NCBI GenBank assembly: GCA_003249555.1
Contig: QKIQ01000067.1
Coordinates: 27,835 to 91,834 of the forward strand
Direction: 5' to 3'
Length of the DNA stretch: 64,000 bases
Origin: Clostridia bacterium
GTDB lineage: Bacteria > Bacillota > Clostridia > Christensenellales > SZUA-584
Shown here: positions 2,508 through 29,249 of the stretch, in pieces
Layout: the number at the start of each line of letters is the position of its first letter
How positions within the stretch are numbered: the stretch's first letter is position 1
Made by a program: the position numbers and the translations under genes
The notes under the pieces: generated by a model
Told to the model about the DNA's origin: nothing
Seen by the model: the letters and a program-made list of their open reading frames with translations, nothing else
Databases searched by the model: none

Positions 2508-2954
2508 ATGGCAAAAAGGAGAACGCGTGTAAGCGGTACGCAGCTAAAAAGCGAAGGCTTATATACGGTAAGGTCTGGCGGCAGCTGGCAAATAGATTTG
2601 GCGGCGGTCAGACGGCGTATTGATGCGTATCTGAAGGAAGCGGCAGAGACGGGCAAATACAGCATATCTGGGCTTTGTATTGCGCTGGACGTGCCGAGAA
2701 GCGTGCTTGGTTTATGGAGAGAGGGATACGCCTGTGAGCAAGACACAGGCGCTGCAGCGGTGCTGCCCAATGAGTCGCTAAGCCGATGTGTCGAGATGGC
2801 GCTGCTGCATATTCAGCGGTATTGGGAAGAGGCCGACAAGCCGTCTTCAATGAATGTGAAACAGCTGGAAGCCACTGGCGCGCTTTCAGATAGTGCGCCT
2901 TTAAGCGTAGTGCCGCCTTTTGATCTGGGGCGTTTAAAAAAGTATTCCCAATAG
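2508..2954 (+). CDS. Putative terminase small subunit (GP3/DNA-packaging HTH-like)
   Basis: RBS GAGGTG, ATG 2508; IDAYL..YSISGLCIALDVPRSVLGLW..LSRCVEMALLHIQRYWEE resembles the GP3_package-type TerS pattern; lies upstream of TerL. Confidence 0.55.
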   Translation: MAKRRTRVSGTQLKSEGLYTVRSGGSWQIDLAAVRRRIDAYLKEAAETGKYSISGLCIALDVPRSVLGLWREGYACEQDTGAAAVLPNESLSRCVEMALLHIQRYWEEADKPSSMNVKQLEATGALSDSAPLSVVPPFDLGRLKKYSQ

Positions 2955-2960
2955 CCGTCA

Positions 2961-2990
2961 TTGAATAATCGGTAATTCTTGGGGTACAAT
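2961..2990 (+). promoter_or_regulatory. Sigma-A-like promoter for ferredoxin
   Basis: TTGAAT-18bp-TACAAT just upstream of the RBS. Confidence 0.5.
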
Positions 2991-3026
2991 AGTATTGATT
3001 TTTGTGTAAACGAGGAGGAAACAGCA

Positions 3027-3218
3027 ATGAAAGCAGTAATTGACCGTGACGGCTGCATATCCTGCGAACTGTGTGTGGATACGTGTCCTGAGGTGTTTCG
3101 AATGGCGGAGGATGGGCTCGCGGAAGTCTATGTGGATGAGATTCCCAAAGAGGCAGAAGATGCGGCGAATGAGGCGGCAGAAGGATGCCCCGTTGCCGTG
3201 ATTACGATAAACAATTAG
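3027..3218 (+). CDS. Single-cluster [4Fe-4S] ferredoxin
   Basis: RBS GAGGAGG; CISCELC...GCP motif, acidic, 63 aa. Confidence 0.92.
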   Translation: MKAVIDRDGCISCELCVDTCPEVFRMAEDGLAEVYVDEIPKEAEDAANEAAEGCPVAVITINN

Positions 3219-3232
3219 AAAGGATGTGCTTT

Positions 3233-3265
3233 GCGCCGAACGGTTTGCGTTTAGGCGCTTTTTTT
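3233..3265 (+). terminator. Intrinsic terminator after ferredoxin
   Basis: GCGCCGAACG..CGTTTAGGCGC stem followed by T run. Confidence 0.65.
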
Positions 3266-4723
3266 ATGAGAAGAGACGAGAGTGTAGAGATGGTGCTTTC
3301 CAGGGCATTTGGCAAGCCGACGCCGAAGCAAACCGCGTTTTTGCAGGCGAAAACGCGGTTTGTGGGATATGGCGGAGCAAAAGGAGGCGGCAAGTCGCAC
3401 GCCATACGTGCCAAAGCGACGTACCTGGCGTTTGAGTATCCGGGGATACAGATGCTCATTGTGCGGCGTTCTTTCCCGGAATTGCATGAGAACCATACCA
3501 AACGGCTGCTCGCTGTATATGCTCGCCTGCCCAAACTTTTTAAGCCCAAATACAGCGACAGCGAAAAAGTGTTTACGTTTCCTTGGGGGTCGCGCATCAA
3601 GCTGGGATATTGTCACAACGAAGACGATGTACTTCAGTACCAGGGGCAGGAATGTGATGTGCTTTTTCTTGACGAAGCCACGCAGCTCACCGAGTATCAG
3701 TTCGGCTGGCTGTGCGCATGCGTGCGCGGCACGGGAGATTACCCCAAACGCACCTATGTGACCTGCAATCCCGGTGGCGTGGGGCATGCATGGGTAAAAC
3801 GGCTGTTTATTGATCGTGATTTTAGGCACGGAGAGGACGCATGCGACTATACGTTCATACAGGCGCGTGTGTGGGACAACGCGCCCCTGTTTGCCAACGA
3901 CGACGGGTATAAACGAAGACTGGCTGAGCTTAGGAAAAATAAGGACGGCAAAACCTTGTCGGAGAAAAAAGAACTGGCAAAGCGCAGCGCAAGCTATGTG
4001 CGCCAGCTCGAGAGCCTTGAGCCCTCGCTGCGCCGGGCATGGCTGGACGGCGAATGGAGTGTGTTTGCGGGGCAGTTTTTTTCCGAATACAGCATAGACA
4101 AGCATGTTTGCGCACCTTTTGCGATACCCGACGGCTGGAGAAGAAGCGCCTCGCTCGATTATGGACTGGATATGCTCGCGGTACTCTGGTTCGCGGTGAG
4201 CCCGACTGGCCGCGTTTATTGCTACCGCAGCATTGAGATAAGCGATCTCACGGTGTCGCAGGCGGCTGCGGCGATACGGGATGCCCAAAGCGAAACGGCA
4301 GAAGAATACATTGCGCCGCCCGATCTTTGGAACAGACGGCAGGACACGGGACGCAGTGCCGCCGAGATCTTCGCTGCTAACAATGTGCCTCTGGTGAAGG
4401 CGGGCAATAGTCGCATTGATGGCTGGCTCAATGTCAAGGAATATCTGCGGTGCGATAGGGGAGAACCAACAATGATGTTTTTCTCATCTTGCATACCTTT
4501 GCTTAAATGCCTTCCGCTGCTGCGTCATGACCCCGCCAGGCCGGGAGACGCGGCGACGCAGCCGCATGACTTGACACACAGCCTCGATGCACTGCGCTAC
4601 TGGTGCTCGCGGCGGCAACTATGCCCAATTTCAGATGTGCTTGACGCACCAAATCTGTTTGGGCGCGGCTGCCGCGAAACCGGCACCGTGGAAGATTATT
4701 TGTTGGGAGGGTTTGAGCTATAA
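3266..4723 (+). CDS. Phage terminase large subunit (start 3266 or 3290)
   Basis: Walker A GYGGAKGGGKS, Walker B VLFLDEA, coupling motif TCNPG, RNase H-fold nuclease residues SLDYG and HSLDALRY. Confidence 0.92.
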   Translation: MRRDESVEMVLSRAFGKPTPKQTAFLQAKTRFVGYGGAKGGGKSHAIRAKATYLAFEYPGIQMLIVRRSFPELHENHTKRLLAVYARLPKLFKPKYSDSEKVFTFPWGSRIKLGYCHNEDDVLQYQGQECDVLFLDEATQLTEYQFGWLCACVRGTGDYPKRTYVTCNPGGVGHAWVKRLFIDRDFRHGEDACDYTFIQARVWDNAPLFANDDGYKRRLAELRKNKDGKTLSEKKELAKRSASYVRQLESLEPSLRRAWLDGEWSVFAGQFFSEYSIDKHVCAPFAIPDGWRRSASLDYGLDMLAVLWFAVSPTGRVYCYRSIEISDLTVSQAAAAIRDAQSETAEEYIAPPDLWNRRQDTGRSAAEIFAANNVPLVKAGNSRIDGWLNVKEYLRCDRGEPTMMFFSSCIPLLKCLPLLRHDPARPGDAATQPHDLTHSLDALRYWCSRRQLCPISDVLDAPNLFGRGCRETGTVEDYLLGGFEL

Positions 4724-4724
4724 G

Positions 4725-4751
4725 AAAAAAGGGCGGCAACCCGCCCTTTGT
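4725..4751. terminator. Bidirectional terminator between TerL and DUF2812 gene
   Basis: AAAAAAGGGCGG-CAAC-CCGCCCTTT. Confidence 0.75.
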
Positions 4752-5293
4752 CAGCCTTCGTGGATCAGCAGCTCTTTCTTTAATCGCCGGATTTTGCGCG
4801 TGATCTGTATTACCCAGGAGATAAATGCTCCTCCGAGTACAATCACCAATCCTCCCAGAATGACATTTCCAATACGAAAATAAGGAGAAATTCCGACCAA
4901 TAAATTCATTATGCCGATGCTGATTTCTAAAATGCCGAATCCGAGCCACCACCCGCGAATCCTTTTGTTGTGTGCGATTTGCGACGGGATATCCGAGTGC
5001 AGAGTAAACGGTCCGTCGGCGGCTTTTTTTCGAAAATAGACCCACCGCATGTATGACGAAACAAATTCCGCGCCTGTTTCTTCCACAAATCTTATATACT
5101 TTAGCGCTGCCGGATTTCTAGAACTGTAATCGAGCATCTCTATCCGGTAGATATACTTGCCCGGCGGCGTGTCTTCAAACACATAACGGCACCATGAATA
5201 ATCCGCCAAAGCGAGCCCATTGGCGCTCATTTCGTTGAGCCACTTTTCTTCCTTTTCCCAATTACAATAGGGTTTACGAATCACATGCTTCAT
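4751..5293 (-). CDS. DUF2812 family membrane protein
   Basis: WEKEEKWLNEMSANG N-term, YRIE, WVYFRK, two C-terminal TM helices; typical PadR partner. Confidence 0.85.
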   Translation of the reverse strand: MKHVIRKPYCNWEKEEKWLNEMSANGLALADYSWCRYVFEDTPPGKYIYRIEMLDYSSRNPAALKYIRFVEETGAEFVSSYMRWVYFRKKAADGPFTLHSDIPSQIAHNKRIRGWWLGFGILEISIGIMNLLVGISPYFRIGNVILGGLVIVLGGAFISWVIQITRKIRRLKKELLIHEG

Positions 5294-5613
5294 TTGTTCA
5301 CCCCTCCCGCAATCTGACGACCGTTGAGAATCAGTTCTTCCAGCCGCTCCAATTCTGCTAACACCATGGCTTTTCCGATGCCTGTAATGACGTATTCCTT
5401 CTTGCGGTCATCGCTTGTGCGCTCATAGGGCTCAATCCAGCCTTTTTCAACCAATGTGCTGATGGCGCCGTACAGTGTGCCCGCGCCCATAGACACGCGT
5501 CCGCGGCTTAACGTCTTCACGTTTTGCATGATGCCATAACCGTGCATCGGCTCAAAAAGCGATAATAGTATATAGTATACGGCTTCAGTGAGCGCACCTT
5601 GACTTTCCGCCAT
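5290..5613 (-). CDS. PadR family transcriptional regulator
   Basis: LTEAVYYILLSL..HGYGIMQ..GAGTLY..RKKEYVIT. Confidence 0.92.
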   Translation of the reverse strand: MAESQGALTEAVYYILLSLFEPMHGYGIMQNVKTLSRGRVSMGAGTLYGAISTLVEKGWIEPYERTSDDRKKEYVITGIGKAMVLAELERLEELILNGRQIAGGVNK

Positions 5614-22877: not shown

Positions 22878-23771
22878 ATGGCTATACAATGCATGGAGCC
22901 CATTGCGTTGACGCGTGTCGCGCAAGGAGACTTTATTCATCAGATCAAGTGGGATGGCATACGCGGCATTTGCATGATGGAAAATGGGGCGGTATCGGTG
23001 TTTTCCAAGAGCGGGCGTAACGCAACGGCGGCCTATTTTGAGCTCTCGGTACTTAAGACTCAGATGGATGCCAAGCAGGCCGTGATGGACGGTGAGCTGG
23101 TGGTGTTTGTGGACGGCAAGCCGTCTTTTTATCACGCGCTTAAGCGCAGCCGTGTTCATGGATCCGCGGTAACTGCGCGGTATGCTGTGAGATACATCGT
23201 GTTTGATTTGCTGATGCTGGACGGTGAAGACTTGCGGAGCAAACCCATTGAGCAACGGCAGGCACGGCTCAAAGAGCGTTTTGAAGGCAGTGCAGTGGCA
23301 GCGCTCGCGGACAGCTTCGACGACGGCAATGCGCTGTTTGCGCTCATGAAACAAAAAAGCATGGAGGGCATCGTTTCTAAACGGCGCGGCAGCCCGTACA
23401 CGGCGGGCAAACGCCATAACGATTGGTTTAAAACAAAAACCGCAAAAAAGATACTTTGCATCGTGAGCGGTGTGCATTTTAATGAAGGGCAGGCGGCGTC
23501 GCTGATGCTGGGCATTTACCGTGACGGTTCACTCGTGCCTGTGGGGCATGTGGGTGCGGGGCTATCGCAGGAAGACCTGCGATGTCTTGGAGAATACGCA
23601 AAGAGAGAAGGCAAAGCCGAGGGCAAGAACGATATTGCTTTAGAACCAAGGCTCACTTGCTGGGTGCGGTTTGCCGAATGGACGCCCGCGCTCACTCTGC
23701 GCCATCCGGTGATGCTGGGCTTTGCGGATAAACCGCCGGAGGACGCCGCGGGAGAGGAGATCAGCTTATGA
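22878..23771 (+). CDS. ligD: ATP-dependent DNA ligase (LigD ligase domain)
   Basis: KWDG, DGE, VFDLL, EGIVSK, WFKTK, LRHP. Confidence 0.9.
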   Translation: MAIQCMEPIALTRVAQGDFIHQIKWDGIRGICMMENGAVSVFSKSGRNATAAYFELSVLKTQMDAKQAVMDGELVVFVDGKPSFYHALKRSRVHGSAVTARYAVRYIVFDLLMLDGEDLRSKPIEQRQARLKERFEGSAVAALADSFDDGNALFALMKQKSMEGIVSKRRGSPYTAGKRHNDWFKTKTAKKILCIVSGVHFNEGQAASLMLGIYRDGSLVPVGHVGAGLSQEDLRCLGEYAKREGKAEGKNDIALEPRLTCWVRFAEWTPALTLRHPVMLGFADKPPEDAAGEEISL

Positions 23772-24649
23772 GCACCATTACTGTGCAAGGCAGCACCGTG
23801 TCTATCACAAATCCTGATAAAGTGTTGTTTCCGGACACCGGCATGACCAAAGCCGGGTATATCGATGTGCTCGCCAAGCTGGCACCGTATCTTCTGCCGC
23901 ATACCACCGGGCAGCCGCTAACCGCGATCCGATATCCACACGGTGTGGGAGATCATGAGTTCTTCTATCAGAAGCGGCCGCCCAAAGGGACACCGGACTG
24001 GGTCAGCATCACCACCGGCGACAACGGCGAAACGTTTATCAACCTCGACAGTATGAAAACGCTGTTGTGGCTGGGCAATTCGGCAGCGCTCGAATTTCAC
24101 GTTCCTTTCTGCAAGCCCGACGGCATGCTGACGGCGCTCGTATTCGACCTTGACCCTTCGGAAGGGCAGACGTTTGAAGACGTTGCAGCGTGCGCATTGT
24201 CTGTCCGCGAGACGTTGACCGAACTCGGCGTGGCGTGTTACGCCAAGACATCCGGCGCATCGGGTTTACAAATCTATATCCCCACGCGGCGTATGATGTT
24301 TGAGGAAGGCCGCAAGATCAATACATTTTTCGGCAAGTATTTTGAAGCCAAGCATCCCGATTCCGTGACCATCGAGCGGCTTGTGAAAAACAGGGGGCGC
24401 AAGCTCTATTTTGATTATCTGCAGATGGGGCATGGCAAAAGTATCATCTGCGTATATTCGCCGCGCGCGGTGCCATGCGGCGCGGTATCGATGCCGGTCA
24501 CATGGGAGGAGCTTGAAAGGGGCGTGAGCCCTTGCGACTTTACGCTAAGCAATGCGGCACAGCGGCTGAAAGAGAAGGGCGACTTGTTTGCGCCCGTGCT
24601 CAACGAGGGTAAATCAAATTCCGCGTTGGAGGAAATTCTGAAAAGATAG
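23768..24649 (+). CDS. LigD polymerase/primase domain protein
   Basis: ITNPDKVLFP, RYPHG, FYQK, FDLDP, KTSG, FDYLQ, YSPR. Confidence 0.9.
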   Translation: MSTITVQGSTVSITNPDKVLFPDTGMTKAGYIDVLAKLAPYLLPHTTGQPLTAIRYPHGVGDHEFFYQKRPPKGTPDWVSITTGDNGETFINLDSMKTLLWLGNSAALEFHVPFCKPDGMLTALVFDLDPSEGQTFEDVAACALSVRETLTELGVACYAKTSGASGLQIYIPTRRMMFEEGRKINTFFGKYFEAKHPDSVTIERLVKNRGRKLYFDYLQMGHGKSIICVYSPRAVPCGAVSMPVTWEELERGVSPCDFTLSNAAQRLKEKGDLFAPVLNEGKSNSALEEILKR

Positions 24650-27596: not shown

Positions 27597-29249
27597 CTAC
27601 TTCTCCCTATCTTTTTCCCTCAGCTCAACCCGGCGGATCTTGCCGCTGATTGTCTTGGGGAGCTCATTGACAAATTCGATCACGCGCGGGTACTTGTACG
27701 GCGCGGTCACCTTCTTCACATGCTCCTGCAACTCCTTTGCGAGTGCGTCGGACGGCTCATAGCCCTTCGCGAGCACGACGGTGGCTTTCACGACCTGTCC
27801 GCGGTCGGGATGGGGCACACCCGTGATTGCCGTTTCCAGCACCGCCGGATGCTCCATCAGCGCGCTTTCCACCTCAAACGGCCCGATGCGGTAACCGCTG
27901 CTTTTAATCACGTCGTCTGTGCGGCCCACATACCAGTAATAACCGTCCTCATCTTTCCAAGCGACATCGCCCGTGTGGTAAACGCCGTCGTGCCAGACAG
28001 AAGAAGTCAATCCTTCATCTTTATAGTATCCCAAAAACATGCCAGGCGCAACTCCATTTGCGGTACGAATTACCACTTCGCCGGATTCACCCCAGCCGCA
28101 CGGCTCTCCAAACTCGCTCACGATCTCCACATCGAAAAGCGGGGAAGGCTTGCCCATGGAACCCGGGCGGGGTTCCACATAGATAAAGTTTGCTACGGAA
28201 AGCGTGGTCTCGGTCTGCCCGAAGCCCTCCATCATTTTTAGCCCCGTCGCCTTTAAAAACTGGTTGTAAACCTCGGGGTTAAGCGGCTCACCTGCTATCG
28301 TTGTGTATTTCATCGCTGAAAAATCGTATTTTGTAAGGTCTTCCTTGATGAAATAGCGGTACATCGTGGGCGGCGCACAGAATGTCGTCACCTTGTTGTC
28401 GCAGATGGCCTTGAGAATTTCGTTCGGGATAAACTTCTCATGGTCGTAGACGAAAACTGCCGTTTCGCCGAGCCACTGGCCGTACAGCTTGCCCCAGACA
28501 GACTTGGCCCATCCCGTATCGGAAATGGTTAAATGCAAACCGTCCGGATCAACGTTATGCCAGTGCACCGCCGTGGGAATGTGACCCAGCGGATATGTGA
28601 ATGAATGAATAACCATCTTGGGCATGCCCGTTGTGCCGGATGTAAAATAAAGAAGCATGATATCGTCGTTCTCGGGCAGCTCGAAAGACGATGTGTCCAG
28701 TACGTCGCTGGCGGCTTCCACACCCGACGTGTAATCAAGCCAGCCTTCGCGTCCGTCCAAAATAGCTTTGCATTCAAGCGTCGGCATACCTTGGGCTTCT
28801 TCTATATGATCCGCCACTTCGCCGTCTGCCGTGCAGACGATCATTTTGATGCCCGCCGCGTTCACGCGGTATTCGATGTCTTTTTTGGTCAGCAGATGCG
28901 TCGCGGGGATTGTCACCGCGCCGATCTTGTGAAGCGCCATGATGGTGTACCAAAACTGGTAGTGGCGCTTTAATATCAGCATCACCTTATCGCCCTTCCT
29001 GATGCCTTGAGACAGGAAAAAGTTTGCGGCCTTGTCTGAAAGGCGCTTTAAGTCAGCAAAGGTGAAGGTGTGTCGCTCACCTTTTTCTTGCACCCATACG
29101 AGCGCACACTTGTCTGGCTTGGTGACGGCCAACTCGTCAAGCACGTCGTAAGCGAAATTGAAACGCTCCGGTACGCTGATTTTGAAGTTCTTCTTAAAAT
29201 CCTCATAGGATGTGTAATGAGCTTTTGCGTATTTTTCAAATATCCTCAT
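27597..29249 (-). CDS. Short/medium-chain acyl-CoA synthetase (AMP-forming)
   Basis: [42 protein letters not shown]. Confidence 0.92.

Follow-up and report, generated by a model that had tools for sequence, protein, structure and literature searches.

The stretch of DNA analysed here, called the window throughout, spans 64,000 nucleotides (positions 27,835 to 91,834 of contig C41) of a draft Clostridia genome, G000, which comprises 130 contigs with a completeness of 92.7% and a contamination of 5.6%. Near its left end lies a plus-strand cassette of three genes: a TerS-like small terminase, probably of a divergent P22 gp3 type (2508-2954, 148 aa), a single-cluster 4Fe-4S ferredoxin (3027-3218, 63 aa; Pfam Fer4_13 at 5.4e-16 and Fer4_15 at 5.9e-16) and a TerL large terminase with ATPase and RNase H-like nuclease domains (3266-4723). 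The open reading frame (ORF) of TerL extends from 3185 to 4723, and its start is likely the ATG at 3266, giving 485 aa, because homologues begin there. On the minus strand, the cassette is flanked upstream by a divergent gene for a cytidylate-kinase-like protein with an endonuclease-like C-terminal domain (1427-2362; Cytidylate_kin2 at 1.3e-30) and downstream by host-type DUF2812 and PadR genes (4751-5613). A GC-rich hairpin at 4728-4749, an intrinsic terminator, separates the convergent TerL and DUF2812 genes. An initial annotation, made from the letters of the window, had described an intact orphan terminase pair and proposed that it was part of a domesticated or dispersed packaging system resembling a gene transfer agent (GTA). 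The ORF coordinates agree with its placing of the TerS-like gene and of the full-length TerL, and PadR and DUF2812 were both confirmed as the families facing TerL, but the pair is actually a trio, the ferredoxin gene having been overlooked. The absence of a portal, capsid, tail, integrase or phage lysis gene from the rest of the 64 kb also held: none of the 59 further ORFs (7178-63956) matched such a family at E <= 1e-6, 16 of them matching no family at all, and a tblastn search of the whole genome with structural proteins of relatives gave no other match on the contig of the window.

The TerL protein scored above the curated thresholds of two Pfam families, Terminase_3 (42.4 bits for a cut-off of 23.2) and Terminase_6N (36.5 bits for a cut-off of 22), and matched phrog_979 at 1e-39; with the NCBIfam model of the PBSX TerL it reached 32.3 bits against a cut-off of 105. 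Its motifs, named after consensus patterns, were compared across 23 genomes. The Walker A motif GGA[KR]GGGKS (GGAKGGGKS at residues 36-44) was found in 22 of them, while the Walker B and catalytic motif ..DEAT (D136-E137), the coupling motif TCN[PL]GG (T166-N168) and the nuclease acidic residues D298, D353 and D441 (the last within PDALRY) were each found in all 23. The single Walker A exception, in genome G023, is an alignment artefact, the matched stretch beginning after an intein-like insert. This comparison agrees with the earlier view of TerL as an undecayed enzyme that retains its Walker A and B, coupling and nuclease residues. The AlphaFold model (predicted local distance difference test, pLDDT, 86.3) has the two-domain fold of an ATPase joined to an RNase H-like nuclease. 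Searched with Foldseek, it matched the full-length terminases of phages D6E (E 2e-21) and Sf6 (gp2, 6e-15), as well as those of T4 and HK97, and it could be superposed on the P22 nuclease domain with a TM score of 0.73 and a root-mean-square deviation (rmsd) of 3.1 Å. PDB sequence searches with TerL and with a TerL profile gave no matches. The insert of the G023 protein (L029:8698-11169, minus strand) is about 345 aa long and interrupts Walker A itself (GGGK / insert ... HN / S). It contains two LAGLIDADG-like motifs, matches no Pfam family at 1e-5 and starts with Leu instead of the usual Cys or Ser; from its sequence it looks like an intein.

The 148-aa TerS is made of an N-terminal beta-hairpin, a helical core resembling a helix-turn-helix and a conserved C-terminal tail, PPFDLGRLKKY. 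No family passes its cut-off with this protein. The Pfam family GP3_package gave 16.2 bits (E 0.012), below the curated cut-off of 29.4, and matched 49 of 50 members of the TerS family at sub-threshold level, with a best value of 1e-5. Among 58 remote profile relatives, 21 matched GP3_package, of which 8 exceeded its cut-off, and GP3_package was the only family to recur. Profile-profile alignment with hhalign against the gp3-like TerS of a contiguous cluster in a genome of another family (G026, described below) reached a probability of 94.8% (E 5e-8), bearing out the TerS-like identity first proposed. When the AlphaFold model (pLDDT 81.8) was compared with 48,161 PDB chains, the top chain was the P22 small terminase 3p9a_A, with a Z score of 6.8 over 86 residues at an rmsd of 3.3 Å (next chain, Z 4.7), a Z below 8 being one that may reflect a common helical arrangement. 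Foldseek of the same model against the PDB returned nothing at E <= 0.001, a PDB sequence search with the TerS profile no match, and tblastn of TerS against phage records no match at E <= 1.

The gene for TerS keeps its place a short way upstream of that for TerL in 17 of the 19 loci of the genus, and a model of the two proteins in complex obtained a score of 0.61 (0.62, 0.61 and 0.60 in three runs), the best of three controls obtaining 0.35. The mark for this score is reached by 58 of 80 solved complexes and by 2 of 110 mismatched pairs, counts that apply only roughly here, own alignments having been used. At least 59% of contacts are common to the runs, and the pLDDT of the partners is at least 71. 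In the modelled interface, TerS residues 134-148 rest on the N-terminal and ATPase domain of TerL (residues 6-59, 107 and 160), and three residues of this tail, D139, G141 and K145, are invariant in 50 sequences. The model thus supports binding of TerS to TerL through the C-terminal tail. Taken together, four lines (GP3_package, hhalign, the fold and the complex model) indicate that the TerS of the window is probably a divergent P22 gp3-type small terminase.

Structural genes, which the initial annotation had suggested seeking elsewhere in the genome, were found on another contig, C78, where a tblastn search with the neighbours of relatives' TerL homologues gave matches at about 155-163 kb. 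They form a head-tail module of about 9 kb (C78, about 155.2-164.3 kb; L033:9227-18280) with all genes on the plus strand. It encodes p67 (67 aa, hydrophobic N-terminus), a portal (552 aa; P22_portal; phrog_156 at 1e-28), a scaffold-like gene (228 aa, in scaffold position), the major capsid protein (MCP; 279 aa; Phage_capsid_4; phrog_267 at 4e-38) followed by two small proteins, a tail protein (222 aa; Gp10_C), a virion protein (vsp607, 607 aa), a fibre-like protein (232 aa) and an NlpC/P60 hydrolase (301 aa; NlpC/P60 and PG_binding_1). The module is flanked by AIM24-like and DeoR genes and contains no terminase. The terminase of the window is therefore an orphan in that no other phage gene occurs in the 64 kb, but not within its genome, which holds a matching module. 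Matches to tyrosine recombinases were absent from C41, and the nearest on C78 lay 42 kb from the module.

The C78 portal is the only P22-type portal of the genome, and the window TerL is its only TerL of that family, except for two fragments at contig ends. Two ordinary prophage-like regions (C31, 20.4-25.4 kb; C4, 11.6-17.4 kb) contain their own contiguous TerL_ATPase, Phage_portal and HK97 capsid genes. Their GC contents of 45.3% and 47.6% lie below those of the cassette and the head-tail module, which are 53.8% and 54.4% where the genome as a whole has 47.6%; among windows of equal size, the values of the two modules stand at the 94.5th and 99.2th percentiles. The GC content at third codon positions is 0.61-0.64 in the two modules against 0.51 in the elongation factor gene EF-G, and a similar GC offset occurs in most relatives. 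In the ESM Atlas, the stored homologue of the capsid protein (96%) fell into generic phage-capsid clusters only. The interval between portal and scaffold (L033:11085-11714, and the same interval in L056-L062 and L035) varies from 0.6 to 4.7 kb, with extra genes in some species. Portals have reading frames of about 510 to 790 aa, internal stop codons being listed in some portal matches, and the longer portal of G024 has a C-terminal match to the bromodomain-like PAV1-137.

Relatives of G000 carry the two modules in contiguous, interrupted and split arrangements. In G286, which belongs to another genus of the same family, a single contig reads TerS-fdx-TerL (fdx denoting the ferredoxin gene), then 1.3 kb, then p67-portal-scaffold-MCP-p124-p138-...-vsp607-fibre-NlpC, with 4.8 kb from TerL to the capsid gene. 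G026 is from a different family (47-49% identity); there, EF-G and SpoIIP enclose a block of 12 kb with a gp3-like TerS, TerL preceded by a gene of 349 aa and followed by one of 70 aa, then the portal and about nine further genes. A contiguous TerL-portal-capsid-p124-vsp607 cluster is also present in MT836592.1 (L100; 9,588 bp, from a fecal virome and filed as 'UNVERIFIED: Bacteriophage sp.'). Its gene order is the same, at 32-49% identity, and TerL directly precedes the portal as in G026; instead of a phage genome, this record might represent a GTA-like cluster or a piece of packaged host DNA. In other genomes TerL lies farther from the capsid gene: about 11 kb away in G321 and G024, where host-type genes and insertion sequence (IS) elements intervene, 17 kb in G320, 24 kb in G315, about 62 kb in G022 and 1.35 Mb in the closed genome G013. 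Orthologues stand at syntenic positions: G013 and G005 retain the order hpt, cytidylate-kinase-like gene, TerS-fdx-TerL ... GT4. As for the nearest homologues, they belong to the same chromosomal cassette or to compact clusters of 12-13 kb devoid of lysogeny and replication genes, and not to complete prophages.

The 3' flanks of the two modules are exchanged between clades of the genus. In G000, G021 and G004, TerL faces DUF2812-PadR and the NlpC/P60 gene is followed by DeoR; in G017, G018, G022, G019, G015, G011 and G020, TerL is followed by DeoR, and in G017 and G018 it is the NlpC/P60 gene that faces DUF2812(-PadR). The modules therefore move as intact units. The exchange (L006-L012, L050-L054) is consistent with a rearrangement whose breakpoints coincide with the 3' end of each module, and which could have occurred by one inversion or by translocation. 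More remote capsid relatives occur elsewhere in the order, G110, G235 and G275 being among the genomes concerned, and two other genera have one in all of their sampled genomes (8 of 8 and 4 of 4). In one of the latter, G110 (L096), a portal-capsid cluster has no TerL of the window family within 20 kb, so that layouts which are split or lack a terminase may have arisen more than once in the order. The cluster of G275 seems to have a different terminase.

Family-wide counts of TerL, of the capsid gene and of a control were made on 40 genomes of the family, and smaller samples comprised 24 genomes of the family and 22 other genomes of the genus. TerL was present in all 22 of the genus, at 65-86% identity where full length, in all 24 of the family sample and in 36/40 family-wide (E <= 1e-100); the capsid gene was found in 32/40 and both genes in 29/40. 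TerS was single copy in each of the 24 family genomes, and its profile was found in none of 16 other families. Portal and capsid were each found in 19 of the 22 genomes of the genus and, counting vsp607, at least one structural gene in 20. The control, the TerL of the C31 prophage, occurred in 8/40, with at most 51% identity outside G000.

Two observations that the initial annotation had proposed as checks, host-congruent phylogeny and dN/dS well below 1, were both made. The TerL and EF-G trees of 21 genomes differ at weakly supported nodes only. Distance matrices compared with that of EF-G by Mantel tests gave r = 0.92 for TerL, 0.96 for the portal and 0.93 for MCP, values that none of 2000 permutations attained in any of the three tests; the correlations are partly driven by the distant G026. 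Within the genus, MCP is 84-96% identical where EF-G is 81-92% identical. Even at 79-92% EF-G identity, genomes gave full-length matches free of internal stop codons. The dN/dS ratios, calculated by the Nei-Gojobori method on pairs with dS < 1.5, were 0.18 for TerL (87 of 231 pairs), 0.22 for TerS (29 of 153), 0.064 for the ferredoxin (34 of 171), 0.11 for the portal (59 of 136), 0.085 for the capsid (46 of 136) and 0.11-0.37 for the other structural genes. Over all 13 genes of the system they range from 0.06 to 0.37, and in the host flanks from 0.07 to 0.15.

The window cassette and the C78 module belong together because the sole P22-type portal of the genome lacks an adjacent terminase while the sole TerL of its family lies in the window, because G286, G026 and MT836592.1 hold both in one cluster, because both share a raised GC content, and because the two ordinary prophage regions carry their own TerL, portal and capsid genes. 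The gene orders suggest that the two halves were formerly one cluster, relatives displaying its dispersal from contiguous through interrupted to fully split. Probably, then, the TerS-ferredoxin-TerL cassette encodes, in trans, the packaging motor of a GTA-like particle system that derives from a podovirus and has been domesticated, inherited vertically and dispersed, a reading that the initial annotation had anticipated in outline and that the structural module on C78, synteny, congruent trees and low dN/dS support. Its hosts form an uncultured Christensenellales-like family of Clostridia. As in GTAs, genes of phage origin for head, tail and packaging reside in the chromosome, pass down vertically and are under purifying selection, with no genes for replication, integration or lysogeny and no self-transmission: flanks are host-type, no integrase match lies within 42 kb and the genes are split. 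The features of a prophage, namely contiguity, an integrase or repressor, replication and lysis modules and a sporadic occurrence, are not those of this system.

In the mechanism that we propose, the head-tail locus would build procapsids with a P22-type portal. TerS, probably as a gp3-like ring, would recruit DNA and hold TerL by its conserved C-terminal tail. TerL, made in trans from the window locus, would dock on the portal, pump DNA in and cut it by headful, and the cell-wall hydrolase would aid release or entry. Particles would carry random host DNA and not their own genes, because the genes are dispersed, total about 11.3 kb and include a small capsid protein (279 aa). Random pieces of host DNA are thus the most likely cargo, hinted at only by the gene total and the small capsid protein. 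Particle production and cargo are what we infer from the genes, and the particles may deliver DNA.

The closest described system, by analogy, is FpGTA of Faecalibacterium prausnitzii, reported as a podovirus-like GTA-like element in two loci (PMC12946183, Nat Commun 2026;17:2046). In this account, a 10.5-kb locus encodes TerS, TerL, portal, scaffold and capsid, a 5.5-kb locus 125 kb away encodes baseplate, fibre, holin and endolysin, and particles of 40 nm contain about 9 kb of host DNA each (PMC12946183). The same work attributes 3 of 25 GTA-like packaging events to metagenome-assembled genomes (MAGs) of Christensenellaceae, its available text naming no gene cluster for them (PMC12946183). 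Further GTA candidates are presented in a mouse-gut preprint, in whose available text they fall in other Clostridia families and none in Christensenellales (10.64898/2026.07.08.737213). As FpGTA is described, it shares with the window element a Gram-positive Clostridia anaerobe as host, podovirus-like TerS, TerL, portal, scaffold, capsid, tail or baseplate, fibre and lysin genes, a compact makeup in more than one locus, a near-universal presence in the host clade and the lack of lysogeny or replication genes. It differs in where the set is broken: FpGTA keeps its terminase beside portal and capsid, with tail and lysis genes apart, whereas the window element breaks between TerL and portal. The window element moreover has a ferredoxin in its terminase operon, a word that occurs 0 times in PMC12946183, and the dispersal in its family reaches the megabase scale. 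The FpGTA TerS is described as having no obvious DNA-binding domain. FpGTA particles and their DNA were seen experimentally, while the window element is known from genes alone and is likened to FpGTA by kind, not by sequence. The name Faecalibacterium is absent among the named rows of the capsid and TerL homologue matches listed.

In phage P22, the genes are ordered TerS (gp3), TerL (gp2), portal (gp1), scaffold and coat. P22 and Sf6 share with the window element this order TerS, TerL, portal, scaffold and coat, a portal of the P22_portal family on C78 and, as far as the models go, a TerS fold that may be gp3-like (3p9a, Z 6.8) and a TerL fold like Sf6 gp2 and the P22 nuclease domain. They differ from it in that the window TerS falls under the Pfam cut-off, the 279-aa capsid belongs to Phage_capsid_4 and the remaining phage genome is absent. 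GTAs of the RcGTA type, in Alphaproteobacteria, consist of a domesticated, vertically inherited head-tail set with accessory loci elsewhere, are under purifying selection and have a GC content above that of the host. Vertical inheritance, accessory loci, purifying selection and raised GC are shared with the window element, whereas the RcGTA type is siphovirus-like, has an HK97-type head and a terminase in the main cluster, and comes from another phylum and another phage ancestor. Agents of this type are named in the introduction of PMC12946183. According to the same article, PBSX of Bacillus subtilis also packages host DNA and is a phage-like element that resides in the chromosome of a Gram-positive spore former and does not replicate (PMC12946183). 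It differs in being a contiguous myovirus-like defective prophage. No description of the window element was found in PMC or bioRxiv full text, a scope outside which Supplementary Data File 1 of PMC12946183 falls.

Several observations weigh against a GTA-like system. TerL occurs without a detected capsid gene in 7/40 family genomes (G007, G008, G020, G318, G204, G323 and G325), the capsid gene without TerL at E <= 1e-100 in 3/40 (G003, which has a partial TerL, G140 and G324), and neither gene in one, G317. Most of these genomes are incomplete MAGs. G008 retains portal and vsp607; neither G007 nor G020 yielded a portal, MCP or vsp607 match, the DeoR flank being missing as well in G007, through an assembly gap or a true loss. 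Two of the genomes are nearly complete: G140 (96%) has the head-tail cluster and lacks TerS, fdx and TerL, and G204 (95%) has TerS-TerL with no capsid gene found; both may be real losses. No holin or recognisable regulator was identified in either module. The Z score of the TerS fold match lies in the range of common helical arrangements, and the TerS-TerL complex model may lean on likeness to solved terminases. None of the sequencing runs listed as holding the locus is recorded as RNA.

It is rather unlikely that the same genes make particles which do not deliver DNA, such as a PBSX-like killer particle or a lysis or defence device in which packaged DNA is incidental. The NlpC/P60 and PG_binding_1 hydrolase at the end of the structural module and the tail-fibre-like genes would suit such a function. 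Killer tailocins, however, need no capsid, portal or terminase, and here TerS and TerL are kept, with nuclease and ATPase motifs intact in 23/23 genomes; this strong conservation of the motor argues that DNA packaging itself is under selection. For FpGTA, the same possibility is left open by its authors in the published text (PMC12946183).

A co-option of the terminase cassette and its ferredoxin for a capsid-free host function in DNA processing or repair, with the head-tail module as a separate relic, appears very unlikely. The seven genomes with TerL and no detected capsid gene, among them G204 at 95% completeness, speak for it, as do the position of the cassette between housekeeping genes and beside a kinase-nuclease fusion and the host-type ferredoxin inside the operon. 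Yet capsid (0.085) and portal (0.11) are under stronger purifying selection than TerL (0.18) and are inherited with the host just like it; the predicted contact of the TerS tail with TerL and the possibly gp3-like fold are features of a packaging enzyme, and the ferredoxin is missing from 3/3 genomes of genus g21 in which TerS-TerL is intact.

Slow decay of functionless pieces of an ancient prophage would account for the scattering of the genes, the insertions between TerL and portal (including the IS elements in G024) and the loss of one half in some genomes. It is hardly credible in view of the full-length matches without internal stops in genomes with 79-92% EF-G identity, of dN/dS values of 0.06-0.37 for every gene, and of the sporadic occurrence (8/40) of the true prophage terminase of the same genome. 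Least credible of all is a mobile capsid-forming satellite of the phage-inducible chromosomal island (PICI) type, or a still-active small podophage, widespread by chance: capsid-forming satellites do have their own terminase and capsid genes, and the fecal-virome record of a related contiguous cluster goes under 'Bacteriophage sp.', but no integrase adjoins either locus, flanks are host-type and synteny is fixed (att sites were not searched for), the phylogeny is congruent with the host and the gene set is split over up to 1.35 Mb. The capsid-forming satellite option is raised in the text of the mouse-gut preprint for one of its candidates (10.64898/2026.07.08.737213).

The cassette has one member of unusual type, the ferredoxin. 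Its gene is single copy in the genome, bar one contig-end fragment, was found in all 24 family genomes sampled, always adjoining TerS and/or TerL, and also lies within the near-contiguous G286 cluster. It was not found in 3/3 genomes of genus g21, where TerS abuts TerL. The ferredoxin is thus not essential to the cassette, since TerS-TerL is intact in g21. Speculatively, and with a small chance of being right, the ferredoxin could be a working third component of the operon, an Fe-S redox sensor or electron donor linking DNA packaging to the redox or energy state of the anaerobe. If so, a motor encoded apart from the head would allow packaging to be controlled separately from capsid production, a regulatory layout not described for any GTA or phage. 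Searches of PMC and bioRxiv full text, judged from titles and the beginnings of abstracts, gave no relevant report joining terminase, ferredoxin and GTA. The idea of an encapsulin-like compartment holding ferredoxin as cargo was rejected, since terminase, portal and tail genes occur and are conserved.

Among gut Clostridia, Christensenellaceae included, GTA-like packaging of host DNA was newly reported as common, in an account whose available text works out a gene set for Faecalibacterium only (PMC12946183). The genes described here supply a candidate GTA-like set for a whole Christensenellales-like family, and suggest that such a system can remain under selection with its terminase up to 1.35 Mb from the head genes. 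They also serve as a warning: when a draft genome shows a seemingly 'orphan' terminase, or a capsid cluster lacking one, these genes are not necessarily junk, and tools that seek contiguous clusters will miss split systems. The series of arrangements in relatives records the dispersal stepwise, and the ferredoxin is a concrete, testable oddity.

Some features of the window concern the surroundings of the cassette. The hairpin at 4728-4749 had been read as a bidirectional terminator. It is present, but a strong T-run follows it on the minus strand only, where it terminates DUF2812-PadR; the plus strand has an A-run before it and merely TTT after it, so that the hairpin is weakly bidirectional. 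A promoter scan gave one weak sigma-70-like site (9/12) before the ferredoxin gene, which supports no claim. The protein encoded at 1427-2362 matches PHROG endonuclease and Holliday-junction-resolvase families over residues 200-302 (E 1e-6 to 4e-4), and the place of this kinase-nuclease fusion gene beside the terminase cassette is kept in G002, G009, G013 and G005. Its synteny is conserved, though it is at most a putative part of the particle system.

Sporulation-type genes in the window encode SpoIIGA, a Germane-domain protein and a SleB-like hydrolase, the only link to sporulation found. A gene at 23768-24649 (plus strand) encodes a stand-alone LigD primase-polymerase domain (5e-68), no neighbouring ligase or Ku being noticed in the Pfam table. 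Finally, a second, partial copy of the cassette is split over two contig ends of the same genome (C28, 1-1018, and C56, 1-1372; loci L003 and L002). One end carries TerS (72%), fdx (90%) and the N-terminus of TerL (90%), and the other the C-terminus of TerL (74%), DUF2812 and PadR. Given the contamination of the bin (5.6%), this copy is most simply explained by a second related strain and not by a paralogue.

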